From the IMG/VR virus record IMGVR_UViG_2724678985_000012: a stretch of DNA of 64,000 nt. One strand, 5' to 3'. The notes below the pieces were generated by a model that saw only the letters and a list, made by a program, of their open reading frames with translations, ran no database searches and was not told the DNA's origin. The position numbers and the translations under genes were made by a program. Position 1 is the first letter of the stretch. Each line of letters opens with the position of its first letter. Source of the DNA: a virus (lineage: Duplodnaviria > Heunggongvirae > Uroviricota > Caudoviricetes). Positions 1 through 12,830 of the stretch are shown here, one piece after another.

Positions 1-134
1 GCACGCGGAACAGTTAAAACAATCCTCCTTAGTGGTTAAGTCAAACATCCCGGCGTTAATTGTTAACTGGTTAACGTCACCTGGAGGCACCAGGCACCGC
101 AGCTTTTTTATTCGGTAAATAATGGAGTGAGAGG

Positions 135-1178
135 ATGCAGAACAATCCGAACAAATGTCGAACGCTATGGGTGCGGTTATATATTTATGTCGTCCTCTGT
201 TTGATTGTGTCACTGGTTCTGTATGTTTGGCTTTTGCCAAATATGATCTCATCTGACAGCACAATACTTGTATTGTTGGGAGTCCTTCTCGCGCTCATTT
301 ACCCGGCTTTTGCAGTAGTCTTTTTTCGTGAAAAAACCAGGAAATTGATTAATGAAAAAACGTTGATTAGTGCAGCGATTATTTTTGGTTCTTTATGTCT
401 GACCGGATGCGATCGGGTAGAGCCAGGTAACGTAGGGATCAAAGTAAATAAGCTGGGGGATGATAAAGGTATCGGTGAAGTAGTTGGCGTTGGTCGCTAC
501 TGGACAGGCTTGAATACTGAAGTTTATATCTTCCCGACCTTTAAGCAAATGAAGACATACGATGAGCCGTTCAGCTTCCAGATGAGCGACGGAACAACCA
601 TTGGTTACCACATCGGCGTAGCCTACAAGGTTGATCCAGCAAAAGTCACAACGGTATTTCAGACCTATCGCAAAGGTGTAGATGATATTACTGATACCGA
701 TCTACGCCAGAAGGTTGCAGATGCTCTGAACCGGTTAGCCAGCAAAATGACCACCGACAAATTTATCGACGGTGGCAAATCTGAATTGCTTGATGCAGCC
801 CTTAAAGACATTCAGGAAGAAATGACGCCCATCGGTATTCAGGTAATGAGCCTCTCATATGTGGGCAAGCCGGAGTACCCGCCAACCGTTATCGACAGCA
901 TTAATGCCAAAGTCACGGCGAACCAGAAAACTCTGCAACGCGAGCAGGAAGTCAAGCAACGCGAAGCAGAAGCCAACATGCTGCGCGCAGAAGCTGCTGG
1001 ACAGGCCGATGCCATTCGCACAAAAGCCCAGGCTGAAGCTGATGCCATTCGTTTACGCGGTGAGGCTCTGCGCCAGAACCCCGGCGTTATGGAGTTGGAA
1101 GCGATCAACAAATGGAACGGAACGCTACCGCAGTATATGACCAGTAATACCGCTGTTCCGTTTGTTCCGGTGAAATAA
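135..1178 (+). CDS. SPFH/band-7 (HflK/C, QmcA-like) membrane protein, possibly lipoprotein
   Basis: 347-aa ORF; N-terminal hydrophobic segments, lipobox-like LTGC, Ala/Gln-rich coiled-coil C-terminus typical of SPFH proteins. RBS before ATG 135; alternative TTG start at 345 with AGGA RBS would give a classical lipoprotein signal. Confidence 0.6.
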   Translation: MQNNPNKCRTLWVRLYIYVVLCLIVSLVLYVWLLPNMISSDSTILVLLGVLLALIYPAFAVVFFREKTRKLINEKTLISAAIIFGSLCLTGCDRVEPGNVGIKVNKLGDDKGIGEVVGVGRYWTGLNTEVYIFPTFKQMKTYDEPFSFQMSDGTTIGYHIGVAYKVDPAKVTTVFQTYRKGVDDITDTDLRQKVADALNRLASKMTTDKFIDGGKSELLDAALKDIQEEMTPIGIQVMSLSYVGKPEYPPTVIDSINAKVTANQKTLQREQEVKQREAEANMLRAEAAGQADAIRTKAQAEADAIRLRGEALRQNPGVMELEAINKWNGTLPQYMTSNTAVPFVPVK

Positions 1179-1191
1179 CCAAATAGATAAC

Positions 1192-1323
1192 ATGATGGAA
1201 TTTTGGACGTTTGCCGACAAGAACCCTTGGTGGACATTTTTATTTCTGCTGGTGGTTGCATATGGGGTCGAGCAAGCAGCAAAAGCCTTACGCGGTCCTG
1301 GCAAAAAGCGTAAGCGGAATTAA
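1192..1323 (+). CDS. Small hydrophobic peptide (43 aa) between SPFH gene and tRNA
   Basis: Hand-translated ORF MMEFWTFADKNPWWTFLFLLVVAYGVEQAAKALRGPGKKRKRN; one TM-like segment and basic tail; below the ORF-track size cutoff. Confidence 0.3.
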   Translation: MMEFWTFADKNPWWTFLFLLVVAYGVEQAAKALRGPGKKRKRN

Positions 1324-1332
1324 CAGTAATCT

Positions 1333-1408
1333 GGCCCTTTAGCTCAGTGGTTAGAGCTGGCGACTCATAATCGCACGGTCACCGGTTCAAGTCCGGTAGG
1401 GGCCACCA
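1333..1408 (+). tRNA. tRNA with CAU anticodon (tRNA-Ile2/lysidine type or tRNA-Met)
   Basis: 76-nt cloverleaf: 7-bp acceptor stem GGCCCTT/AGGGGCC, D-loop AGTGGTTAG, anticodon loop CTCATAA, T-arm GGTTCAAGTCC, encoded 3' CCA. Resembles enterobacterial ileX-type tRNA from memory. Confidence 0.85.
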
Positions 1409-1862
1409 TATTTGGTTGTAACACGGCGTCTGGCACATGCGTCGTTAGCGGTCTGGTGACGTTAAAGGGGTATCTTTGACTCTTGCTCAGGCAAACGGAC
1501 CAGGTAGCCGGAATGTGCAAGCCCCGATAACAGTGGCGGACCGAGGACTCACCATCCTGGCGATTCGGTGTGACAGCCGGAAGAGCACGGCGCACAACAG
1601 GAAAAGGCGTTTAATTAGCGTGAGCGCCGTTTCCGTTGTGGTAATTGCGGCTATGCGCTCGTGACGAAGCCATTTTTATTCACTACGTTCTGATAAGTGA
1701 CGTCGCCAGGAGTGGCTAACCTGGCAGGTGGAGGCACCACCGCCACAACTCCTTTCAATTCATCATATAGCCGCTCAGGCTGTACCCCTTAATTAATACG
1801 AATTTACGACATCACTACCGGCACTTCCGGGGGATAGTCGCGCGTGTAAAAAAGGAGACGTT

Positions 1863-2438
1863 ATGTTAATGGCGAACGATAACGCATATGCAGAAGAAGA
1901 TCTCATTTTGAGTGACTTCATAGGGAAGCGGGAACGCTGGACCCAAAAGCGAGAGGAACTTTACGCCTCATTAGTTCGCAAAGGCGTCAATATCGAAACC
2001 GCACAGAGCGGCGATATGACAGTGGTAAGCGTTGGATTGCACGGTGTAAGCGTGTCAGCAATCAATCATGAGCCATACGTTGCGTTATCCGAGTCAATGG
2101 TAAGGTTAGTTAAGTTCCTGAAGTACACAGAAGCGAATAATGTAATCATTGGCAAAAAGAATATCCCTTTTTCCTCGGCTTTTTACTGGATGATGAAAGG
2201 GCTTGATGCCCGGCGGACATCATGGCCTAAAGGGAGCTATATATCGATGTTCCGTGGCAGCATTGGCAGCAAAGAAAAGCTCTTCGAATTCTTGCCGGAA
2301 GAGGCATTCGATATTGTGGAAGGGTGCGATGTGATGGTGATGCCTCGCCTGGTAATGATGAATGGGGATTTACAGGCGCAGACAGACTGGTTTGCAACTG
2401 GTGTGGATATTATCGCGACTGACTGGGAGGCTTTCTGA
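1863..2438 (+). CDS. Hypothetical protein with DUF2829-like motifs
   Basis: 191 aa; FSSAFYWMMKGLDARRTSW and C-terminal DW motifs weakly resemble DUF2829. Confidence 0.45.
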   Translation: MLMANDNAYAEEDLILSDFIGKRERWTQKREELYASLVRKGVNIETAQSGDMTVVSVGLHGVSVSAINHEPYVALSESMVRLVKFLKYTEANNVIIGKKNIPFSSAFYWMMKGLDARRTSWPKGSYISMFRGSIGSKEKLFEFLPEEAFDIVEGCDVMVMPRLVMMNGDLQAQTDWFATGVDIIATDWEAF

Positions 2439-2830
2439 TGTACGGGACTACCAAATTAAGCACTCAACAGGCCACCAATATGGAGTGGTCTATCGCTAAC
2501 TGTAAGATCGTGTCATGCAATGCCACGCGTACTGATGTGGGCCATAAAAGCACTATAACAGGCTATCTAGTAATGACCACCAGGGGGATGAGGGTTAGAT
2601 TTCGCTGGAAAGCAGAGCAAGTAACGCCATTCAGAGAGCCATCAATGCCGCTGCAGGTTGAGCAGGATTATCTATGTTTACCAGAAATAGATGGAGGAAT
2701 GCTGGTGGAGTCTGATGGTAGTAAGGCTGATTTTGAAGCCAATTTGAAGCTGGCACAGGCCGTAATCAATAGTTATCGCGGAAAGTGGATCGCAAAAGTG
2801 AAACATGTTGTTCGTTTGTCTCGCTGGTAG
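2438..2830 (+). CDS. Hypothetical protein
   Basis: 130-aa ORF overlapping upstream stop (ATGA coupling). Confidence 0.4.
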   Translation: MYGTTKLSTQQATNMEWSIANCKIVSCNATRTDVGHKSTITGYLVMTTRGMRVRFRWKAEQVTPFREPSMPLQVEQDYLCLPEIDGGMLVESDGSKADFEANLKLAQAVINSYRGKWIAKVKHVVRLSRW

Positions 2831-2938
2831 CGTTAGGTATTTAATATTAATTTTCTAATATAATCATCTTTTTACCAGTCTATACAGTTTTAACATTCTC
2901 ATTATCATCCCCTCGGTCATTTCCTGCCCGGGGGATTA

Positions 2939-3331
2939 ATGGAACAAATCAGCAGCGCAGAAATTGCGGATATCATGATCAGGGCTGACTGCTATCTGAC
3001 AGTCACTGAAATTACCACTCTCGCCAAAGAAAAATACCCTCATCTCCATGTTTCACGAGTAAGTGTAACTAACATCATTCGTCATTTTGTTCGTTCAAGC
3101 AGGGCAATCTGTGAGCTGGATGATCGTGTGTATCCACGAAAATACTGGCTACATGGTCTGAACGGATATCAGTTCAAGGTGCGCGGGCGCACGCCTGAAT
3201 ACGGTAGCTTACTGGTTAAAAACTGTAGCAGGAAATCAGTCGAACAGGCGCGAAAAGAGCAACGAGAGCTGGTGGACATGGCGAATAAGCTGTGGAATGC
3301 CGCCGTTAAAAAGCGTGGTGTTGCTTTATGA
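2939..3331 (+). CDS. Putative DNA-binding protein at the position of P1 late promoter activator Lpa
   Basis: 130 aa, immediately upstream of and overlapping pacA; HTH-like segment; operator-like motif at 2847-2860 upstream. Confidence 0.4.
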   Translation: MEQISSAEIADIMIRADCYLTVTEITTLAKEKYPHLHVSRVSVTNIIRHFVRSSRAICELDDRVYPRKYWLHGLNGYQFKVRGRTPEYGSLLVKNCSRKSVEQARKEQRELVDMANKLWNAAVKKRGVAL

Positions 3332-4692
3332 GTCTGGTTAATTGGGAGGAGCACCGCGCCCGCTTTATAGCGTTGCGTGAAGAAAAAGGGATCACTGTAA
3401 AGGAATACTGTGAGGAGCATGGCCTTAGCTTCAATACAGCCAGAAAGCATCTCAATATGAAAAAAAATGAGGTGCGGTCGCAGGTAAAGACAACAAAAAA
3501 AAGCACCAAATCACCTGAAAAAAAACGGGCGGGAAGAGCAACAAAAAAGCTGGAAGAGGGTGCAGAAAAAACAAAATTTACAGAAATTGACAATTCGCAG
3601 GGCGCAGGTTCTTTCCGAAGTATGCCGAGAAAGAAAACTTCGGATCATGAAAATAATGCAAATAATAACAATGAGATAAAAGAATCTGTCAGGAGATCAT
3701 TGCGCGAAAAAATGGCGAAAATGATCCCCGAAGAAGATAAAAGCGCCCCAAAAATTGAGGGATCTTCAGCAATGATCCCTGGCGGTGCTGTGCAACGTGC
3801 CACATTGCCCACTACGAATGTGGCTCGCGACATGATGAAGAACGGCGCAGAAGAACACCTGCGGTTAGCAATTCAAATGGCGCAAGAGCGCGCACTTCAG
3901 TATCAAAGCATTGTTGATCAGGAGGCCGAACGTCTACAGGCGGAAATAGACGCCTTGGGCGATAAAGAGCCAGAAGGAATGCACCCTGGGCAGCGCCTTC
4001 TCGGTCTAATCAGTGACGCGGCCTACTACATGAATGATTTTATCAGTAGGTTGGCAGCTATATATCAGTCCGAACAAAAGCTGCGACAGGGGGATGAAAA
4101 GCTTCGTCAGAGCGCTCGCCAGCAAGCATTCAAAGAGGCTGAGGCCAGAGAAAAACTCGAATTAGCACGCCTACAGGCCGAACAGCGTGGCAAAGAGATT
4201 GAATATCGCATTGGCGCTGACGCACGCGCTGCCAGAGTTATCGCCGCCGCTATACGTATGCGTGAGCGCGAGGAACTGGATGATATCGGTGTTGCTGAAT
4301 ACATCGAGCGCCAGGGGGTCAGCGTCCCGGCTATCCTCGCGGCGCGCGCGGCGAAAGCTATCACTCTTCTCGAACCACCTGTTTCTGACGTCAATGATGT
4401 TGATGATGAACAGCTGGACAAAGAGGCAAGGGAGTTTGCAACGCTTCAGGCTAACCATCCGCAATGGCTGGCAGAGCGCCGGGCGGATGTGGCAACCATT
4501 GTTGAAGAATTGGGGTGCGGAGATTACGACCGCAATGGCGAGCGTAAAGCTGGAGAATTCGAGGCCAACGACGAAGAGCTGGATATTGACCCTTCGGCAA
4601 CGGCTGAAATTTACGGTGATTATGATGCATCTGATGCAGGGTATGACGCCGGAGATGATGATATCGCGATAGAACCGCCGGAGGATGATTAA
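3328..4692 (+). CDS. pacA: PacA-like terminase small subunit
   Basis: 454 aa, coupled to downstream PacB; acidic C-terminus; contains GATC-hexamer cluster. Confidence 0.65.
   Translation: MSLVNWEEHRARFIALREEKGITVKEYCEEHGLSFNTARKHLNMKKNEVRSQVKTTKKSTKSPEKKRAGRATKKLEEGAEKTKFTEIDNSQGAGSFRSMPRKKTSDHENNANNNNEIKESVRRSLREKMAKMIPEEDKSAPKIEGSSAMIPGGAVQRATLPTTNVARDMMKNGAEEHLRLAIQMAQERALQYQSIVDQEAERLQAEIDALGDKEPEGMHPGQRLLGLISDAAYYMNDFISRLAAIYQSEQKLRQGDEKLRQSARQQAFKEAEAREKLELARLQAEQRGKEIEYRIGADARAARVIAAAIRMREREELDDIGVAEYIERQGVSVPAILAARAAKAITLLEPPVSDVNDVDDEQLDKEAREFATLQANHPQWLAERRADVATIVEELGCGDYDRNGERKAGEFEANDEELDIDPSATAEIYGDYDASDAGYDAGDDDIAIEPPEDD
3641..3780. other. pac-like packaging site candidate: clustered GATC hexamers in two opposed groups
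   Basis: GATC at 3644, 3696, 3723, 3761, 3774; GATCAT elements on one side, TGATCC/GATCT on the other, as in the P1 pac site inside pacA. Confidence 0.5.
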
Positions 4693-6200
4693 TGGCTGGC
4701 GGGCGCAAGATTAAATGCGTCACCAGCGATCCACGCTGGCGCGATATGGTAATCAAATACCGCTACAACTTTACCCAGGCTGTTGTCGATATTTTTGGGA
4801 TGTTCCCCTCCCACCAGCAGCAGCAGATCATTCAGTCAGTGCAGGAAACGGGGAGTAGGACGACCGTCACGTCCGGACACGGAACGGGGAAGTCGTCCCT
4901 TACCGCGATGTTGCTGTTGATTTTTATGATCCTGTTCCCCGATGCCCGTGTCATCATTGTTGCTAACAAGATAGGCCAGGTAAAAACAGGCGTATTCAAA
5001 TACGTTAAACAGTATTGGGCGAATGCAGTTAAGCGTCATGGGTGGTTGCAGACCTATTTTGTCCTCTCTGACACCATGTTTTATGAGCGCTCCCGTAAGG
5101 GGATTTGGGAAGTTCTCTGCAAAGGTTATCGACTCGGCAACGAAGAAGCGCTGGCGGGGGAACACGCGGCACATTTGCTTCTAATTCTGGACGAAGCATC
5201 TGGTATATCTGATAAGGCGATCGGCGTAATGACCGGTGCTCTTACTGAAGAAGATAACCGGATGTTGATGCTATCCCAGCCAACAAGGCCAAGTGGTTAT
5301 TTCTACGATTCGCACCATTCTCAAGCAAAAACCCCAGACAACCCGAAAGGGATCTGGACAGCAATTGTTCTTAACTCGGAAGAATCACCGTTCGTCACAC
5401 CACAATTCATCAAGCAGAAGCTTCTGGAATATGGCGGGCGCGATTCTATTGAGTACATGGTCAAGGTGCTTGGTCAGTTCCCACGAGAAATTAACGGCTA
5501 TTTGCTTGGTCGTGATGAATGCGATCGCGCTGCTCGCCGCAAGGTGTTGTTGGAGAAAAACTGGGGATGGGTGGCAACGGCTGACGTTGGTAATGGGCGA
5601 GATAAGTCGGTCCTCAACATCTGCAAAGTATCTGGTCACAGGGATAAGCGGCGCGTTGTTAACTTTAAGGTAATGGAGATGCCTGGCACTATGGACCCAT
5701 TGGCCTTTGCTGACTTCATATATAACGAATGTACGCCGGAAAAATACCCGAATATAACAATCGCGGTTGATGCTGATGGTTTTGGTTCTGATACGTGTGC
5801 GCAGTTGGTGCGTCGTGGTGCGAACCCGGTACGTATTCGGTGGGGAAAACCCATGTTTGCGAACAAAGACAGGGAGCGATTTGTTAATCAGCGTGCCTAC
5901 GCAAATATTATGGCGCGAGATGCCATAAAGTCAGGGCGTATGCGGATAGACAGTGACCCTAAAACGGCAGAGCAAGCGTCAAAAATCCCCTTTTTACTGA
6001 ATGAAGAAGGGAAAATGGCGATGATGCGCAAAGAGCACATGCGGCAAAAGCTAAACATCAAATCGCCTGACCGATGGGATACCTACTGCTTCACTATGCT
6101 GGTGGACTATGTGCCTGCTAATGAAGATATTGGTGCCGAAATGGCAACTTTCCGAGATCAGGTTCTGGCGGATATCGAAATGCCGGATCTGGATATATAA
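4692..6200 (+). CDS. pacB: PacB-like terminase large subunit
   Basis: 502 aa; Walker A SGHGTGKS; terminase-like architecture; start overlaps pacA stop. Confidence 0.8.
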   Translation: MAGGRKIKCVTSDPRWRDMVIKYRYNFTQAVVDIFGMFPSHQQQQIIQSVQETGSRTTVTSGHGTGKSSLTAMLLLIFMILFPDARVIIVANKIGQVKTGVFKYVKQYWANAVKRHGWLQTYFVLSDTMFYERSRKGIWEVLCKGYRLGNEEALAGEHAAHLLLILDEASGISDKAIGVMTGALTEEDNRMLMLSQPTRPSGYFYDSHHSQAKTPDNPKGIWTAIVLNSEESPFVTPQFIKQKLLEYGGRDSIEYMVKVLGQFPREINGYLLGRDECDRAARRKVLLEKNWGWVATADVGNGRDKSVLNICKVSGHRDKRRVVNFKVMEMPGTMDPLAFADFIYNECTPEKYPNITIAVDADGFGSDTCAQLVRRGANPVRIRWGKPMFANKDRERFVNQRAYANIMARDAIKSGRMRIDSDPKTAEQASKIPFLLNEEGKMAMMRKEHMRQKLNIKSPDRWDTYCFTMLVDYVPANEDIGAEMATFRDQVLADIEMPDLDI

Positions 6201-6224
6201 AGCCCCGCGATGCGGGGCCGGTTG
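6201..6224. terminator. Bidirectional stem-loop between convergent pacB and repressor genes
   Basis: GCCCCGC-GAT-GCGGGGC hairpin with flanking A/T-rich runs. Confidence 0.45.
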
Positions 6225-6227
6225 TGA

Positions 6228-7265
6228 TTACCAGAGCTTCGCGGCGTACTGCGTTTGGGGGAATGTGTATCCGTAACGTTCTTCGATTGCTTTGCCGTAT
6301 TTTTTACGAGCTTCATTCAGTTTAATGCCGGTCAGGTCGTCTCCAGAGGCCATCATTACGTCTAACAATTCCAGATCCATTTTATCCAGCCTTGCCATTG
6401 CTTCACGTGATGTACGTATCTTACGTTCAATGATATGGCGAATAGCCGGATCGGCATCCTCCAGCATCTTAGCGGATTTCTGCTTAAGGCTTTCATTGCG
6501 AATATCGATGTTCCTTAAGATGTACGACTTCGCAACGTAGCTTGGCTGGTGTTTTTCCAGGTCACGAACACGATATAAGTTAAAATCGCCGAGAAGGCTG
6601 CAAGGTACCGATTCGACGCCAGAATAAATTGTAATGCTCCGGCGTTCACCAACATTATTGACAACGGGGATCGTTGTCTTCGGTAGTCTTGCGAAAACCA
6701 ATGCGCCATGTGCGCCAACTCTAAAGCGAGAAAGGGCATTGCTGCCTTCGATGTTTGTTGTCAGCACAACATCTGTATATGCCTCTTTACGCGCCCGGTA
6801 GATCTCGCCTTCAGGCTCAGCTTCAAAGAAGCGCTGTTCTTCTTCAAGAGCACCTACGATTTGAGAAAAAACCCTATTTTTCAGGCTTTTCTTTATGATT
6901 TTGTCGTATTTTTTTAGCAATTGTTCACGTGTAAATGTACGTGTTGTTGTAGCGCTTTGCACAACGACATGCGTGCTTTGATTGGTGTCCTCAATGATGA
7001 ATGGGATCGGAGAATATACAGACTCAACAATGTTCGACGCTTTGCCGTCGGCATCGCGGCACATGTCAACGAAGGCTTTCCATTCAGCAAGACATTTTTC
7101 AGCTTCTTCTAATATGTTTTGGTCATGCGTTAATGCAACATGGCGGAATTCCTCGCCAGCATAACTGGTATCATGGAAAACAGAGTTTGCGACCACCAGC
7201 TCTTTCCACCGTTCAGCGGTTTGCAGGAACCGTTTGTACTCTTTCTCGATCGACTTCTTACTCAT
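6228..7265 (-). CDS. Putative immunity repressor (C1-like by position and operator context)
   Basis: 345 aa between pacB and lox/cre, where P1 carries c1; operator-like motif 15 bp upstream of its start. Sequence identity to C1 not verified. Confidence 0.4.
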   Translation of the reverse strand: MSKKSIEKEYKRFLQTAERWKELVVANSVFHDTSYAGEEFRHVALTHDQNILEEAEKCLAEWKAFVDMCRDADGKASNIVESVYSPIPFIIEDTNQSTHVVVQSATTTRTFTREQLLKKYDKIIKKSLKNRVFSQIVGALEEEQRFFEAEPEGEIYRARKEAYTDVVLTTNIEGSNALSRFRVGAHGALVFARLPKTTIPVVNNVGERRSITIYSGVESVPCSLLGDFNLYRVRDLEKHQPSYVAKSYILRNIDIRNESLKQKSAKMLEDADPAIRHIIERKIRTSREAMARLDKMDLELLDVMMASGDDLTGIKLNEARKKYGKAIEERYGYTFPQTQYAAKLW

Positions 7266-7279
7266 TATTCCTACTCGAT

Positions 7280-7294
7280 TTAGTTTTCTAACAT
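7280..7294 (+). promoter_or_regulatory. C1-type operator-like site (TTAGTTTTCTAACAT)
   Basis: Exact copy of the dispersed motif; second inverted copy with one mismatch at 7364-7378. Confidence 0.5.
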
Positions 7295-7474
7295 AAAATT
7301 ACTATGACAAATTTATGTCGAATAACAGAGTGAGTAAAGGATCGAACTGTGATTTTTTGTCATCAATTTTAGAAAACCAACCGTAGAAACCACACTTCGC
7401 AAATTAAAGACCATGAAGGCAACGTGTTACTGGTCATCATCAATCTATGATGGATTTAAAAAAATCGGCATTTT

Positions 7475-7508
7475 ATAACTTTAAATAATTGGCATTATTT
7501 AAAGTTAA
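7475..7508. other. lox-like recombination site (13-bp inverted arms, 8-bp spacer)
   Basis: ATAACTTTAAATA-ATTGGCAT-TATTTAAAGTTAa; outer ATAACTT identical to loxP arms, inner arm bases differ; 150 bp upstream of cre. Confidence 0.8.
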
Positions 7509-7516
7509 GCTATAAT
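7489..7516 (+). promoter_or_regulatory. Sigma70-like promoter overlapping lox spacer, directed toward cre
   Basis: TTGGCA, 16-bp spacer, TATAAT. Confidence 0.4.
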
Positions 7517-7659
7517 CATGGGTGGATGATCAGTGTTGACATCACTGAAAATACGTGCCTCGAATCAAAGGTTTGAATCTTGAAAATTAACTTATAGCTA
7601 CCCTGTCATTTTTATATTTTTCGCGTAGCGTCATCTGTATATAGAGGTTAAATAGTTTC

Positions 7660-8688
7660 ATGAGTGAATTAATTATCTCTGGCAGCTCCAGTGGTTTTCT
7701 GCGCAACATTGGCAAAGAGTACCAGGAGGCCGCAGAAAACTTTATGCGGTTCATGAATGACCAGGGGGCTTACGCGCCTAATACTTTGCGCGATCTCCGG
7801 TTAGTGTTTCACTCCTGGGCGAGATGGTGTCACGCTCGCCAGCTCGCCTGGTTCCCGATCTCTCCAGAGATGGCCCGCGAGTATTTTCTTCAGCTGCATG
7901 ATGCTGATCTGGCTTCGACCACCATTGATAAGCACTACGCCATGCTGAACATGCTGCTTTCGCATTGTGGCCTTCCGCCACTTTCGGATGATAAAAGTGT
8001 TTCTCTGGCTATGCGGCGCATCCGGCGTGAAGCGGCAACGGAAAAAGGCGAACGAACAGGCCAGGCTATACCGCTGCGGTGGGACGATCTGAAACTGCTC
8101 GACGTCCTGTTGTCCAGGTCAGAACGGCTGGTGGACCTGCGCAACCGGGCTTTTCTCTTTGTTGCATACAATACGCTGATGCGCATGTCTGAAATCTCGC
8201 GTATTCGTGTAGGAGATCTGGACCAAACAGGTGACACTGTCACGCTACATATTTCACACACGAAGACAATAACGACCGCCGCCGGGCTTGATAAGGTGCT
8301 TTCCCGTCGCACTACTGCTGTGCTGAATGACTGGCTGGATGTTTCCGGGCTTCGTGAACATCCTGACGCGGTGCTGTTCCCGCCGATACACCGTAGCAAT
8401 AAGGCCAGGATTACGACAACGCCCCTTACTGCACCTGCAATGGAGAAAATATTTAGTGACGCCTGGGTGTTGCTGAATAAAAGAGATGCCACTCCAAACA
8501 AGGGGAGATACCGGACGTGGACCGGGCATAGTGCTCGTGTCGGGGCTGCTATCGATATGGCAGAAAAGCAGGTGTCTATGGTGGAGATCATGCAGGAAGG
8601 AACCTGGAAGAAACCGGAAACACTTATGCGGTATCTGCGCCGTGGCGGCGTGTCTGTGGGGGCTAATAGCCGCCTGATGGATTCATAA
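7660..8688 (+). CDS. cre: Cre-like tyrosine site-specific recombinase
   Basis: 342 aa; alignable along its length to P1 Cre from memory (WFP, AFL..AYNTL.R..EI.RIRV.D, HSARVGAA.DMA, C-terminal Tyr in MRYLRR). Confidence 0.9.
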   Translation: MSELIISGSSSGFLRNIGKEYQEAAENFMRFMNDQGAYAPNTLRDLRLVFHSWARWCHARQLAWFPISPEMAREYFLQLHDADLASTTIDKHYAMLNMLLSHCGLPPLSDDKSVSLAMRRIRREAATEKGERTGQAIPLRWDDLKLLDVLLSRSERLVDLRNRAFLFVAYNTLMRMSEISRIRVGDLDQTGDTVTLHISHTKTITTAAGLDKVLSRRTTAVLNDWLDVSGLREHPDAVLFPPIHRSNKARITTTPLTAPAMEKIFSDAWVLLNKRDATPNKGRYRTWTGHSARVGAAIDMAEKQVSMVEIMQEGTWKKPETLMRYLRRGGVSVGANSRLMDS

Positions 8689-8761
8689 ATTAAATTTCTA
8701 ACACATCTTTTTAGATTGTTATCTTTGCTGTAAAGTACCCTCGCCTATTTCGGAGGGTGCT

Positions 8762-9106
8762 TTGCAGAGTCAAATCACGGAATCAAGACGCTTTAAGGTG
8801 GATGGTTACACCGTAACCTTCGCCGCTGGTGTTAAGAACAGTCATGCTGTCGTTGTGTTCGGCATCATGACCGGGCTTGAGGCCGTCCCTGTGTTTACCC
8901 TCGAAAAAAACTGGCGAAATCTGGAGGAAGCAGAAAGCTACGTCCGGAAAGTAACCATCATTGCCGCCGAAAAACTCCTGGCCCACTATCAGGAAAATTA
9001 TCGCACTATGGTCGAGAAGATTAATCTCGCTTTCACTCGCCCCACTACCGGCTTTATTGCACCGGATACTAATGCAGGTCGCTATCCTGCAAGGGGGCGT
9101 CGGTGA
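8762..9106 (+). CDS. Hypothetical protein (TTG start)
   Basis: 114-aa ORF with GGAGGG RBS; first gene of operon downstream of cre. Confidence 0.35.
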   Translation: MQSQITESRRFKVDGYTVTFAAGVKNSHAVVVFGIMTGLEAVPVFTLEKNWRNLEEAESYVRKVTIIAAEKLLAHYQENYRTMVEKINLAFTRPTTGFIAPDTNAGRYPARGRR

Positions 9107-9579
9107 AAACTTATTACACATCTCTGAATTGTTACCCGTCTTCCTATCCAGAATTATCCGGGAAGCTGTTAGCTCTATTAGCTAAAGCACCTACGGAATG
9201 GTTTAAGCCAGTCGTTATCAATCCACACTTCCTGGATTACGGATCTGTTCGCACTCGTAACGAACTCAAAAACCTACTGGCGCATGGATTCATTCGACAC
9301 CGTGCCGGGAAAGGCTATCAGTTAGCGATTGCGCCAGAAGAGGCCGTGCGGCTATTCGCATATCGTGACAGCCAGACAAAAGCTCGGGTAATAGCTCAAA
9401 TACTTCATAACGGCAGCACCTATGCCCGCCAGTTTGGCGGCGACACGTCGCAGTTCTTGCGGGCGGTGCGATCGCTGGAGGAGCAAGGAGTTATTGAAAG
9501 TTCCTGTCTTCCTGTTCCTACCGTTCCACATATCAAACGTCGGGTTTACACCTTCACGCAGAGAGCTAAAAAACAATGA
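9103..9579 (+). CDS. Hypothetical protein
   Basis: 158-aa ORF coupled to flanking genes. Confidence 0.4.
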   Translation: MKTYYTSLNCYPSSYPELSGKLLALLAKAPTEWFKPVVINPHFLDYGSVRTRNELKNLLAHGFIRHRAGKGYQLAIAPEEAVRLFAYRDSQTKARVIAQILHNGSTYARQFGGDTSQFLRAVRSLEEQGVIESSCLPVPTVPHIKRRVYTFTQRAKKQ

Positions 9580-10070
9580 TTTACGTAAAAGTGAAACGCC
9601 TACATCCGGCAGCAAAACTTCCAGCTTATGCCACCTCCGGATCGGCGGCGATGGATTTTGAGGCTGTTGAAATAAAACCATGCGTCGATAGCAATGGTGC
9701 AATTTCCTCAAGCTGGTGGGTGTATACCGGACTGGCTATGGAGATCCCGCCCGGCTGGTGTCTGAAACTCTATCCGCGATCCGGATTGGGCTGCAAAAAA
9801 CATACTCGCCTGGCTAACTGCGTAGGAATTATCGACTCCGATTATCGCGGCGAAATCATGGCAAAACTGATTACTGATCCCGGCGGGGAAGGCGTTTGTC
9901 TCAAGCCTGGAATGGCTGTCATGCAAGGAATTTTTGAACGAGTTGAACAAGTCTCACTAGTCGAGGTTGAGGAACTCAACGAAACGGAACGTGGTGCTGG
10001 TGGCTTTGGTAGCACATCGGAAGGCCACTTTGAAATTAAGCGTTCACCGCTTCAGTACGAAAAGTTATAA
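9576..10070 (+). CDS. dut: dUTPase (dUTP pyrophosphatase)
   Basis: 164 aa; motifs AAMDF, GIIDSDYRGE, C-terminal glycine-rich GGFGSTS. Confidence 0.8.
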   Translation: MIYVKVKRLHPAAKLPAYATSGSAAMDFEAVEIKPCVDSNGAISSSWWVYTGLAMEIPPGWCLKLYPRSGLGCKKHTRLANCVGIIDSDYRGEIMAKLITDPGGEGVCLKPGMAVMQGIFERVEQVSLVEVEELNETERGAGGFGSTSEGHFEIKRSPLQYEKL

Positions 10071-10084
10071 GCAGAGAAAAGACT

Positions 10085-10762
10085 ATGAATAACATGGCAA
10101 CGAAAGAGCTTTTTAAGTTCCTTCCCAAATACAAAGCTCACAAAAACGTTAGTGCATCGAAAATCAAAAATGTTGTTATTTTCGGAGTAACTGATGCCCC
10201 ACTTTGGGGCTGCATCGAACTCGTTGAACCAAAAGGGGCAACAGTTTGTGTTGACGCAATGTTTTTACAAAAACACCGACCAAAAACTGGCGGGTATCTG
10301 ATCGTTTATGAAAACGGTTATCTGTTCTATGCCCCGGAGAAACCATTTGAGGAACGCTATGGCCTGGTTAACGACGCCTCCAAAAATGGAACCACGGTCA
10401 TCATTACGGATGACAACGGCGTGATGATTAATCTTACCGGGAGCGTAACTATTTCTGCTGGTGGCATCACCACCCAGCAAGAAGAAATCGACCTTGAAGC
10501 AGCCGACTTTTCTGACGCGCTGATGTGGCTGAAGGATGGCAAGAAAGTTGCTCGACGCGGGTGGAACGGCGAAAACCAATTCTGCTGGCTGGTTCCTGAA
10601 GGACAGTACCCGGCACGAATGGAAGCCATTAAGGGATATTTCCCCGGCGACCTCGTTCCGTATGGTGCTTATTTCGCCTTAAAAAATGCACAAGGTGTAG
10701 TTGTTCCGTGGGTTCCTTCTGTAGGCGACTTACTGGCATGTGACTGGTTTGTAGTGGAGTGA
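10085..10762 (+). CDS. DUF2829-domain protein (Tad2-like fold candidate) with N-terminal extension
   Basis: 225 aa; C-terminal DFSDALMWLKDGKKVARRGWNGEN ... DLLACDW matches DUF2829 signature as recalled. Confidence 0.5.
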   Translation: MNNMATKELFKFLPKYKAHKNVSASKIKNVVIFGVTDAPLWGCIELVEPKGATVCVDAMFLQKHRPKTGGYLIVYENGYLFYAPEKPFEERYGLVNDASKNGTTVIITDDNGVMINLTGSVTISAGGITTQQEEIDLEAADFSDALMWLKDGKKVARRGWNGENQFCWLVPEGQYPARMEAIKGYFPGDLVPYGAYFALKNAQGVVVPWVPSVGDLLACDWFVVE

Positions 10763-10768
10763 TTTGAC

Positions 10769-11545
10769 ATGGAAAGCACCAAAACAATTCAATACCGCTT
10801 GCGTAATGGCCTGCTGGTGGCTGTTAACGCCGACATGTCACTGCCGTTTGACACGATTGAACGCACTATCATGACGTATCTCGGCTTTAATGAAGAGCTG
10901 AATGAAGAGCATGGCGTAGCTATATGGAGTGATGCAGACAGCGGCGTTCGTCGTTACATCACCGCCAGGGGCAAAGACTACTCTCTGGAAGAACTGTTTA
11001 CCCTTGCGCAGTCTTTCGAATGTGTAGCATTAGACCTGTTTAATGATCCTGCTATAGCGCAACGACTTATACGCGAGCTTGGGCTATCCGTTACACCAAT
11101 TATCTTTAAAAATGGCAGCCTGACTGGCACATGGCGCGTAGAACGCATCTCAAACTACCTTCCATATAACCGACAGTTAAATGGAGTAATCTCCGGCGTT
11201 AATCAGCCCGTAGCGTGTGAAAATGTAAACCTGGTTGTCGCTGTTTTGGCAACCGCATGTCGTGTTATCGGTTTGGCTAAACAGGCATTTATTCATTTCC
11301 CAAATGGTGCAGAAGGTAGCGCAGAGATTATCGCGTGTGATTTCGAATTTACCTGGATGCTACGCGAATATCTGGACCAAACAGTATTCCGTGCCGAAGA
11401 ACTGGATATGTATATCACGTCAACGATTCCAGACGATGTGCGAGCTGAAGCAATCGCTATAGCCAGGGCGAAATGCCGTGCGGCGATTGCAGAACGGGCC
11501 AAAGAAGAACAGTCCAATGATACAGCGGCAGAAGAGGTGAAATAA
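10769..11545 (+). CDS. Hypothetical protein
   Basis: 258-aa ORF ending at strong terminator. Confidence 0.45.
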   Translation: MESTKTIQYRLRNGLLVAVNADMSLPFDTIERTIMTYLGFNEELNEEHGVAIWSDADSGVRRYITARGKDYSLEELFTLAQSFECVALDLFNDPAIAQRLIRELGLSVTPIIFKNGSLTGTWRVERISNYLPYNRQLNGVISGVNQPVACENVNLVVAVLATACRVIGLAKQAFIHFPNGAEGSAEIIACDFEFTWMLREYLDQTVFRAEELDMYITSTIPDDVRAEAIAIARAKCRAAIAERAKEEQSNDTAAEEVK

Positions 11546-11546
11546 C

Positions 11547-11579
11547 AAAAAGCCCGCTTGGTATGGCGGGCTTCTTTTC
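11547..11579. terminator. Rho-independent terminator (bidirectional-like)
   Basis: AGCCCGC-ttggtatg-GCGGGCT followed by TCTTTTC, A-run upstream. Confidence 0.7.
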
Positions 11580-11796
11580 AAATACTGGAAGCACTTTGCC
11601 TGCTACCAAGCATTCTCTGTTTAAGCACAACCATTTCCTGACGGCATAACACAGCAATAGCGGTCCTGGCGCCAATTTGCTTACCAATCAGGTATTGCTT
11701 TACCTCGCGGCGACTCACGCCATCAAGAAGCATCTTTAACGCTTCACGGGACAATTTGTTGTATCTACGTGCCATTAATCTACTCCGCGGAACCAT
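11578..11796 (-). CDS. Possible small HTH protein downstream of doc
   Basis: 72-aa ORF with HTH-like [22 protein letters not shown]; overlaps doc 3' end; weak. Confidence 0.25.
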
Positions 11797-12160
11797 ACAA
11801 TCTACGTAACGTGTCGGCGACAGAAGATACAGATATCTCTCCGGTCGCAGCCCCTACGGTAAGGTCTGCCAGTTCAGGTGAATCAAATACCTGCACCCCG
11901 TTACGGCGTAGAAATAGCAGCGCACTGTTTAGCGCGGTACGCTTATTGGCATCATTGAATATATGCCCTCTCGCCGTAGCCACCAGGTAGGTGGCGGAGA
12001 CTTCGAAAAGGTCGGTGATCTCTTCGTAGGCAACTCTGGCCTGAACTCTCCCGATAATGGCCTCTGCCCTACCCGGATCTGACATGCCCGGCAGTCCGCC
12101 GTAGCGGCTTATATTCGCATCATGAAGCGCAATAAGTTCTTCCGGTGATATATGCCTCAT
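11780..12160 (-). CDS. doc: Doc toxin (Fic-fold kinase, death on curing)
   Basis: 126 aa, essentially P1 Doc as recalled ([22 protein letters not shown]...). Confidence 0.95.
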
Positions 12161-12381
12161 TATCGGTTAACCAGTTCCTTGTTGGTGGAATCCAGAGTGT
12201 CAAACAGAGATGCAAATTCGGCATCCAGCGCCGCTTTTTTGTAGGCTTCGAAAGTAGCCTTGCTGACAATTACTGCTGGCTCACGGCCTCTGCGGGTGAT
12301 TTCAACCTCTTCCCCGGCTTCAACATTGTTGAGCACTTCAGAAAAGTTGCCGCGCGCGGTACGGAAGTTAATGGATTGCAT
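12160..12381 (-). CDS. phd: Phd antitoxin
   Basis: [12 protein letters not shown]...ELVNR matches P1 Phd; ORF track adds two N-terminal residues (to 12387); stop overlaps doc start. Confidence 0.95.
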
Positions 12382-12453
12382 AAACACCTCGTGTACTCAT
12401 TATGTGTACACAATTATAAACCTCACAGGCATAAAGCACCAGCACTTTGCAGC

Positions 12454-12830
12454 TTAAATAACCGGACAATCATCAAACTCCCCACTTCGGGCATCATTGA
12501 TGACATGAGTGATCACACCAAAAACAGCATTACTTCCCGTGCATCCATCGTCATCTACTGGTAACGCCTCTTTCTTCCCGGTGCTTAAATCCTCCAGGTG
12601 CTGGCGCGGATACTTCCTGTATCTCTTTATGCGATATTCACCCTCCATAGCGCACACAAGCAGCGAACCATCAACTGGAGTAAGCGAAGAATCAACCACC
12701 AGCATATTCCCTCACGGTGATGGCTATCAGCTGCCCGCATGAAGTAGGTTGCTGATGGATGCCTGATTAGTTGCTGATCAAGAGAAATTCGGCTTTCAAC
12801 ATAATCCGCCGCAGGAGAAGGGAAGCCCAT
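12454..12830 (-). pseudogene. humD: humD (UmuD'-like S24 peptidase) interrupted by a frameshift
   Basis: N-terminal part (FPSPAADYVE...HPSATYFMRA) in ORF 12627..12830, C-terminal part (LVVDS...GEYRIKRY...VFGVITHV) in a different frame 12454..12705; about five residues missing at the junction. Confidence 0.6.

Follow-up and report, generated by a model that had tools for sequence, protein, structure and literature searches.

Two distant Tad2-family proteins, one joined to a Dec-like OB-fold, as candidate signal sponges of a D6-like plasmid prophage

In the characterised members of the Tad2 family, four copies of the protein assemble and trap a small-molecule alarm signal, so that the defence effector is never switched on. 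The founding member, SPO1 Tad2 (gp34.65; PDB 8SME/8SMF/8SMG), binds 3' cyclic ADP-ribose (3'cADPR, or 1''-3' gcADPR), the signal of type I Thoeris. ModTad2, also called MoTad2, is a single-domain protein of 88 amino acids (aa) from a Myroides odoratus prophage (PDB 8V3E, apo form; 9EIB, with ligand), which binds histidine-ADP-ribose (His-ADPR) and, in a second pocket, cUMP. HgmTad2, a cyclic-dinucleotide binder, takes up cADPR and cGAMP, and Tad2_71 inhibits type I, type II and type IV Thoeris alike. Since the ligands of the family include 3'cADPR, His-ADPR, N7-cADPR, cUMP/cCMP and cyclic dinucleotides, membership alone does not give the target. Two Tad2-family genes, open reading frame (ORF) 1 and ORF2, are described here from a 64,000-nucleotide stretch of the IMG/VR virus record IMGVR_UViG_2724678985_000012, referred to below as the window, which represents a D6-like plasmid prophage of the P1 family from E. 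coli. Both genes are likely to encode Tad2 signal sponges, ORF2 for His-ADPR and perhaps 3'cADPR, ORF1 for another ligand.

Tad2 proteins that have N-terminal extensions or are fused to other domains are already on record, for instance HgmTad2, Tad2-Acb4 and Tad2-Sequestin (PMC12265669 for the fusions). In the described sponge-sponge fusions, Tad2-Acb4 of Pasteurella phage Pm86 and Tad2-Sequestin (PF21825), Tad2 is joined to a small phage domain, as it is in ORF2, and close relatives of ORF2 on plasmids of about 90 kb are themselves Tad2-Sequestin or OB-Tad2-Sequestin proteins, OB denoting the oligonucleotide/oligosaccharide-binding fold. The partners found in the window, a Dec-like OB-fold in ORF2 and a domain resembling a double-stranded RNA-binding domain (dsRBD) in ORF1, have no Pfam family, are not among the described sponge-fusion partners and, as particular N-terminal domains of Tad2 proteins, have not been previously described.

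An earlier note on this DNA had proposed both ORFs as DUF2829-like proteins and candidate Thoeris-type sponges. An ORF check found the two reading frames as claimed, ORF2 with the quoted motif ending: its residues 141-164 are DFSDALMWLKDGKKVARRGWNGEN, and its C-terminal end reads ...DLLACDWFVVE. The start of ORF1 is preceded by a strong Shine-Dalgarno sequence, AAGGAG, 5 nt upstream. In a hidden Markov model search, the Pfam family PF11195 (Tad2-like/DUF2829; gathering cutoff 25 bits) matched ORF2 with 80 bits (E 1.8e-22, residues 141-224) and ORF1 with 39.1 bits (E 1.1e-9, residues 103-190). Both scores lie above the curated cutoff and far beyond chance, and, as this holds for ORF1 too, its description as carrying weaker versions of the same motifs was accurate. 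The N-terminal extensions that had been pointed out measure about 100-140 residues on both ORFs, and are absent from minimal Tad2 proteins of about 90 aa.

Structures were predicted by AlphaFold2, with a mean predicted local distance difference test (pLDDT) score of 79.9 for ORF2, where both domains reach about 90 and the linker stays below 50, and of 88.4 for ORF1. The models of both ORFs match solved Tad2 structures. The refuting outcome named in the earlier note, a lack of significant HMM or structural matches, thus occurred for neither ORF. For ORF2, Foldseek gave an E of 1e-9 and target-normalised template modelling (TM) scores of 0.74-0.88, and the top structure was ModTad2 with His-ADPR (9eib). 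This was also matched by sequence in the PDB (E 5.5e-20), together with SPO1 Tad2 (E 6e-9) and the AcrIIA7/HgmTad2 chains 8kbi (E 3.7e-10) and 9kzr (E 1.3e-9); the same sequence search with ORF1 returned no match. NCBIfam has no family for either protein. A PADLOC scan of ORF1, ORF2 and five neighbours gave no match, and thus no sign that they are defence genes. Judged by their sequences, ORF1 and ORF2 are distant paralogues. A recent duplication, which would make them two copies of one gene, was rejected, since they do not match each other significantly in BLASTP (E 0.12).

In order to rank the possible ligands, sequences and phenotypes of tested Tad2 homologues were taken from Table S2 of Hadary et al. 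2025 (bioRxiv 10.1101/2025.08.24.671296), and 17 of them were compared. For ORF2 residues 136-225, the first and second ranks are taken by Tad2_68, with 68% identity, and MoTad2, with 45%, both of them type II Thoeris inhibitors verified by experiment; the remaining homologues are at most 38% identical over comparable alignment lengths, and SPO1 Tad2, which has the same fold, is 36% identical to ORF2 and 20% to ORF1. Tad2_68, an experimentally tested, minimal single-domain protein of metagenomic origin (IMG/VR, 87 aa), shares with ORF2 the middle segment YPARMEA.KG...VPY.AYFALKNAQG.VVPW, whereas ORF2 has 135 extra N-terminal residues, formed by the OB-fold and the linker. The two proteins are the same at 13 of 13 pocket-equivalent positions, 12 of which correspond to SPO1 Tad2 ligand contacts and one to F44, which occludes the second pocket. 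W160, N161, W209, S212 and D215 of ORF2 are the retained equivalents of SPO1 Tad2 W25, N26, W73, S76 and D79, and T78 is replaced by G, as in Tad2_68.

In Table S2 of Hadary et al. 2025, each of the three columns, or stages, gives Tad2_68 a positive score for type II Thoeris, and its scores for type IV Thoeris, the two CBASS and the two Pycsar systems are negative. Against type I Thoeris it was positive after individual re-cloning; the entry 'n / N/A / y' was read as positive, as genes failing plate transformation were re-cloned singly and plaque-scored, and is weaker than 'y/y/y'. The identity to a tested type II inhibitor and the complete pocket match make His-ADPR the likeliest ligand of ORF2, whose assignment to the type II Thoeris/His-ADPR clade is of moderate confidence; it may bind 3'cADPR too. 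The label "Thoeris-type" is well supported for ORF2 only.

Among ORF2 relatives, found in P1/D6-like plasmids and in other phages, the Tad2 domain has near-invariant flanks (IDLEAADFSDALMWLKEGK and PWVPSVGDLLA.DW), and its central, ligand-facing segment falls into at least 15 groups at less than 60% identity. Three forms of this segment are common in E. coli plasmids; the window has the Tad2_68-like one. The pattern suggests either that cassettes have been swapped at the conserved junctions or that selection has diversified the part facing the ligand.

ORF1 retains W121, W176 and D182, equivalent to W25, W73 and D79 of SPO1 Tad2, and has T in place of S76. It is about 23% identical to ModTad2, whose W-N-G loop it lacks, and 20-34% identical to all the tested homologues, the nearest being Tad2_69 and Tad2_72. 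The family is very small: a word-indexed search returned 10 clusters, and an exhaustive HMMER scan of 1.84 billion representatives produced 16 matches, about 10 of them full-length two-domain relatives with 22-56% identity. Between plasmids whose neighbouring genes are conserved, ORF1 is 56% identical. The order ORF1, 130-aa ORF, lpa is kept in a relative with only that degree of ORF1 identity, and in every relative seen; the 130-aa ORF (orf5) had no match in Pfam, PADLOC or PDB. ORF1 is best described as a rare, divergent Tad2-fold paralogue, which probably binds a different ligand. At NCBI, the relative P0128 (56% identity to ORF1) bears the name 'MW1434 family type I TA system toxin', while genes of the identical family on RefSeq E. 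coli plasmids are called 'Thoeris anti-defense Tad2 family protein', so that the naming of the family is inconsistent in public records. A toxin role for the ORF1 family was set aside, as nothing was found supporting the MW1434 toxin name.

The N-terminal domain of ORF2 (residues ~10-96) is modelled as a small beta-barrel with a pLDDT of about 90. The sole non-Tad2 PDB match of ORF2 is Dec of phage L (phmmer E 0.01). The resemblance, with 27% identity over 95 columns, was found also by Foldseek, for the N-domain (E 3e-3, probability 1.0), and by a profile of 16 diverse OB copies, which matched Dec 6e3c with an E of 8.1e-7 over Dec residues 14-92, i.e. the entire OB-fold. The ORF2 linker was aligned by phmmer to Dec residues 93-122, and has a pLDDT below 50 in the monomer model. 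Dec (PDB 6E3C; PMC6449081) is a late structural protein of 134 aa that binds the capsid as a trimer, and its OB-fold is the capsid-binding part (PMC6449081, PMC11398494). ORF2, by contrast, carries a sponge domain and belongs to a non-structural operon. A protein of the Dec type would be expected to sit and act with head structural genes and to be needed for normal virions; ORF2 departs from this by its place in the dre/dut operon, and by what has happened to the OB-fold in D6. In phage D6, the corresponding gene, orf114 (L002:2594-3034), has an in-frame deletion of ORF2 residues 21-99 (window 10145-10381), which is exactly the OB-fold. The product has 146 aa instead of 225; the other 126 residues are 100% identical, and linker and sponge domain are kept. 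Since D6 is viable, the OB-fold is dispensable for phage viability. In ORF2 it probably serves as an accessory part or as a second module of anti-defence.

The distribution of the OB-fold was analysed by scanning IMG/VR with an OB alignment; a word-indexed protein search with the OB-fold alone returned near-identical fragments only. The scan identified 157 relatives. The best 80 loci contain 49 distinct OB-fold proteins, about 34 of which, some two thirds, are stand-alone (87-137 aa) and about 15 longer. Four C-terminal partners could be named by Pfam: Tad2 (PF11195; L023, 85.8 bits), Sequestin (PF21825; L014, 59 bits), the Acb2/Tad1 hairpin (PF24729; L025, 60.8 bits) and RyR/RyDEP (PF02026; L024, 42 bits). 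Recent work has shown that RyR-domain proteins of phages cleave or sequester Thoeris cADPR signals, so that all the Pfam-nameable C-terminal partners are signal-neutralising families. Among GenBank phages, Klebsiella phage SopranoGao (L003) has an OB-Tad2 gene in the early region, after regulators; its relative, phage LASTA (L009), encodes at this early locus an OB-fold followed by a middle domain and Sequestin. Fusions among ORF2 relatives include Tad2-Sequestin, OB-Tad2-Sequestin and dUTPase-Tad2. Stand-alone copies occupy various places: in E. coli lambdoid prophages they separate the lysis genes from the small terminase gene, in phage Bas106 the copy follows a Rha-like regulator, and in Ralstonia phage GP4 it is flanked by the portal and major head genes.

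The middle domain of LASTA gp52 (L009:2486-3361), at residues ~115-200, is small and has the pattern KK.VVI.A.QW...TLEG...GDWII.G..GE.Y.CKPDIF..TYEP; it also precedes Tad2 in P0120, and is thus a further recurrent partner. Other OB proteins have C-terminal domains of 80-200 residues lacking a Pfam match (L045, L047, L051, L038, L027, L035 and gp96 of the Pseudomonas phage Dolphis, L004:3495-3989); their starts were called mechanically, and may lie too far upstream.

It is tentatively proposed, from this pattern of fusions, that the Dec-like OB-fold may be an unrecognised phage counter-defence module against signalling immunity, either a new sponge or an adaptor that would multimerise its partners or bring them to the site of signal production, possibly on assembling capsids. 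The idea of capsid placement comes from Dec, the sole characterised relative, which binds capsids. A literature search returned no paper linking the Dec-like OB-fold to counter-defence. The 'Structural modeling' preprint of the Sorek laboratory (PMC12265669) found Sequestin by fusion logic, via Pfam families only; lacking a Pfam family, the OB-fold would have escaped that search. By the same logic, the unnamed partners (L045/L047, L051, L038, L027, L035, Dolphis gp96) and the N-domain of ORF1 are candidate anti-defence domains.

Taken as sponges, the two proteins would work as follows. ORF2, presumably as a tetramer, would sequester the His-ADPR of type II Thoeris and maybe the 3'cADPR of type I. 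Its place in a six-gene dre operon starting at rox suggests that it would be made early or constitutively, and in Enterobacteria that carry Thoeris it would safeguard the plasmid prophage as well as the growth of the phage. ORF1, with the same fold and two of the pocket tryptophans but an altered signal-contacting loop, would bind another ligand, and both proteins would shield the prophage in hosts with signalling defences.

Several points weigh against this picture. A linker that is possibly trimeric, joined to a tetrameric domain, is geometrically awkward. The pocket comparison of ORF2 rests on SPO1 Tad2 positions, and not on the ModTad2 contacts with His-ADPR (9EIB), and phylogeny is an unreliable predictor of specificity in the Tad2 family, by the authors' own caution (Hadary et al. 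2025). ORF1 has a proline at the position of SPO1 Tad2 N26, which contacts the ligand phosphates, and reads R-x-x-W-P where G-W-N-G is usual. Two of the three tested homologues of this W-P type, Tad2_69 and Tad2_80, inhibited none of seven systems; the third, Tad2_72, was positive after re-cloning, against type I Thoeris only (Hadary et al. 2025). The promoter and terminator of the ORF2 operon are consensus matches only. A literature search turned up no experimental test of any P1/D6 Tad2 member.

Four other explanations were considered, and are given in decreasing order of weight. The two proteins may be sponges for signals other than His-ADPR, such as the cUMP/cCMP of Pycsar, the cyclic dinucleotides of CBASS, the N7-cADPR of type IV Thoeris or those of undescribed systems; this is a distinct, though lesser, possibility. 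Different signals for ORF1 and ORF2 would explain why two distant paralogues are kept on one element. Tad2 homologues have many ligands, sometimes two in separate pockets (MoTad2, HgmTad2, Tad2_71), and 19 of the 84 sponges screened by Hadary et al. 2025, with the Acb2, Tad1 and Tad2 families pooled, inhibited none of the seven systems. The low identity of ORF1 to any tested homologue and the many versions of the ligand-facing segment among ORF2 relatives point the same way, while for ORF2 the failure of Tad2_68, its nearest tested relative, to inhibit type IV Thoeris or any of the CBASS and Pycsar systems (two of each) argues against it. It is rather unlikely that ORF1 is not a sponge at all, and serves, for example, in RNA binding or in the regulation of the adjacent late-gene activator lpa. 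Such a role would suit an N-domain with a fold like that of dsRBDs and of the ribosome hibernation factor HPF, a pocket in which Asn has become Pro, as in the two inactive W-P homologues, and the constant position of the gene and its coupled 130-aa partner directly upstream of lpa. It is countered by the three residues of the canonical pocket that ORF1 keeps, by the type I activity of Tad2_72, and by the fast divergence of ORF1 amid conserved neighbours, which fits an arms-race gene.

That ORF2 is instead a virion protein, i.e. a Dec-type decoration protein with OB-fold legs, a trimeric beta-helix stalk and a Tad2-like tip, is improbable. Homology to Dec covers its first 126 residues and takes in the beginning of the stalk, the OB-fold of Dec does bind capsids, and the GP4 copy stands among head genes. 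ORF2 itself, however, is found in a recombinase/dUTPase operon, and between ssb and isaA in P1-like phages, rather than in a head module; D6 lives without its OB-fold; elsewhere, the OB-fold is fused to intracellular sponge or enzyme families in early regions; and a sponge on the capsid exterior could not reach cytoplasmic signals. An inhibition of Cas9 by ORF1 and ORF2, as anti-CRISPRs of the AcrIIA7 type, is the least probable explanation. It would account for the matches of ORF2 to the AcrIIA7 chains 8kbi and 9kzr, and for the DefenseFinder label 'Tad2 AcrIIA7'. These matches are much weaker than those to ModTad2, and E. coli and Salmonella carry type I CRISPR systems and are not known to carry type II-A. 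AcrIIA7/HgmTad2 itself was crystallised with cADPR and cGG; the discoverers of Tad2 hold the role of DUF2829 proteins to be anti-Thoeris and not anti-CRISPR, and binding to Cas9 was never shown. The reading of both genes as signal sponges is therefore preferred.

Table 1. Positions in the window of ORF1, ORF2, their domains and the surrounding features.
Feature	Coordinates	Strand	Description
ORF1	1863..2438	+	191 aa, D6 orf6; dsRBD-like N-domain and divergent Tad2-like C-domain
ORF1 N-domain	1890..2138	+	residues ~10-92, alpha-beta3-alpha; resembles dsRBD/ribosome hibernation factor in fold only
ORF1 Tad2-like domain	2169..2432	+	residues 103-190; W121-P122 in place of W-N of G-W-N-G; W176, T179, D182 retained
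orf5	2438..2830	+	130 aa, D6 orf5; phrog_7004 only; start overlaps ORF1 stop by one base
rox site (Dre target)	7476..7507		sequence TAACTTTAAATAATTGGCATTATTTAAAGTTA; rox halves annotated here in D6 records
Sigma-70-like promoter candidate	7489..7516	+	TTGGCA-16-TATAAT, 11/12 consensus; overlaps rox
dre, tyrosine recombinase (Cre homologue)	7660..8688	+	PF00589, PF02899; D6 annotation; gene 1 of the operon
Two overlapping ORFs (D6 orf117, orf116)	8762..9579	+	ORF calls, D6 annotation
dUTPase gene (dut)	9576..10070	+	PF00692, E 1.7e-14; immediately upstream of ORF2
ORF2	10085..10762	+	225 aa; Dec-like OB-fold, beta-rich linker, Tad2 sponge domain
ORF2 N-domain	10112..10372	+	residues ~10-96, OB-fold, homologous to the capsid-binding domain of phage L Dec; phrog_11049
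ORF2 linker	10373..10501	+	residues 97-139 (TTVIITDDNGVMINLTGSVTISAGGITT...); aligns with start of the Dec C-terminal trimeric beta-helix
ORF2 Tad2 domain	10502..10759	+	residues 140-225; assigned to the ModTad2/Tad2_68 (type II Thoeris, His-ADPR) clade
isaA-like gene	10769..11545	+	258 aa, directly downstream of ORF2
Terminator-like hairpin, bidirectional	11547..11576		11-bp stem and T-run; closes the operon

The earlier note had placed ORF2 next to a dUTPase in a cre-proximal operon, and this was borne out, the recombinase being the Cre homologue Dre. As reported in Table 1, dre, two ORFs, dut, ORF2 and the isaA-like gene follow one another closely, in part with overlaps, from a promoter-like site to a hairpin; the promoter candidate would likely drive the whole set, from dre to isaA. 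The two ORFs had no Pfam or PADLOC match and orf116 no PDB sequence match; the isaA-like gene had none in Pfam or PDB. The -35 hexamer of the promoter candidate lies inside the rox spacer and the -10 hexamer 4 bases past rox, so that Dre binding could affect transcription of the ORF2 operon. The operator of the P1 C1 repressor (ATTGCTCTAATAAATTT), searched with up to 3 mismatches, had no match in the window, and D6-type repressors probably use another operator.

In P1-like relatives, the homologue of ORF2 lies between ssb and isaA. P1 itself has no DUF2829 gene, and in P1 the C1 operator (Ossb) precedes ssb. The isaA-like gene is always directly downstream of ORF2 homologues, in the D6-type dre operon as well as in the P1-type ssb operon (L006:3001-3783, L005:3070-4032); isaA of P1 is about 60 codons longer at its 5' end. 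This non-structural context fits an anti-defence role for ORF2. In P0055, from E. coli contigs of plasmid size (up to ~89 kb), the dUTPase and Tad2 are fused in frame into a protein of 241 aa, the OB-fold and the intergenic region having been lost by deletion.

Bases 1-12,500 of the window are 97-99% identical to Escherichia phage D6, and the genes matching D6 include pacA, pacB, lpa, the c1 repressor, the Dre recombinase with its rox site, dut, phd/doc and humD. The window is distinct from D6 in its left end, which resembles the P1 type, and in the greater length of ORF2. The deviating left end (135-1600) contains a gene for a membrane protein with an SPFH domain (135-1178) and a tRNA-Met (1333-1408), both matching P1-type phages at about 95%; D6 has there tciA/tciB and three other tRNAs. 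The element is a D6/P1 mosaic. Identical copies of ORF1 and ORF2, with unchanged spacing, are carried by E. coli plasmids of about 75-120 kb in complete genomes, e.g. NZ_CP050999.1. Relatives of ORF2 are present in 213, and of ORF1 in 98, of 5426 complete E. coli genomes, nearly all of them plasmid-borne.

On the identical plasmid genes, RefSeq gives the names 'DUF2829 domain-containing protein' to ORF2 and 'Thoeris anti-defense Tad2 family protein' to ORF1. In a preprint of 2025, a DefenseFinder survey of phage-plasmids assigned 'Tad2 AcrIIA7 (anti-Thoeris)' to 93% of the D6-type elements and to 56% of the P1-type ones. The assignment to the Tad2 family is thus already public and not new, and the core finding is by itself ordinary. 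What is added here is a ligand predicted for ORF2 at the level of its clade, a characterisation of ORF1 as a paralogue both rare and divergent, and, as a new testable lead, the Dec-like OB-fold that recurs with four unrelated signal-neutralising families.

Pathogenic E. coli, Shigella and Salmonella commonly harbour phage-plasmids of the P1/D6 type, whose cargo includes genes for resistance and toxins; to know the host defences that these elements overcome helps to account for their spread and for their use as vectors. The presence of two very different Tad2 paralogues on one element, together with the many versions of the ligand segment, suggests an ongoing arms race over signal specificity. 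If the OB-fold is indeed a sponge or a targeting device, it would represent a new counter-defence family, and would provide a handle on further partner domains and perhaps on new immune signals.

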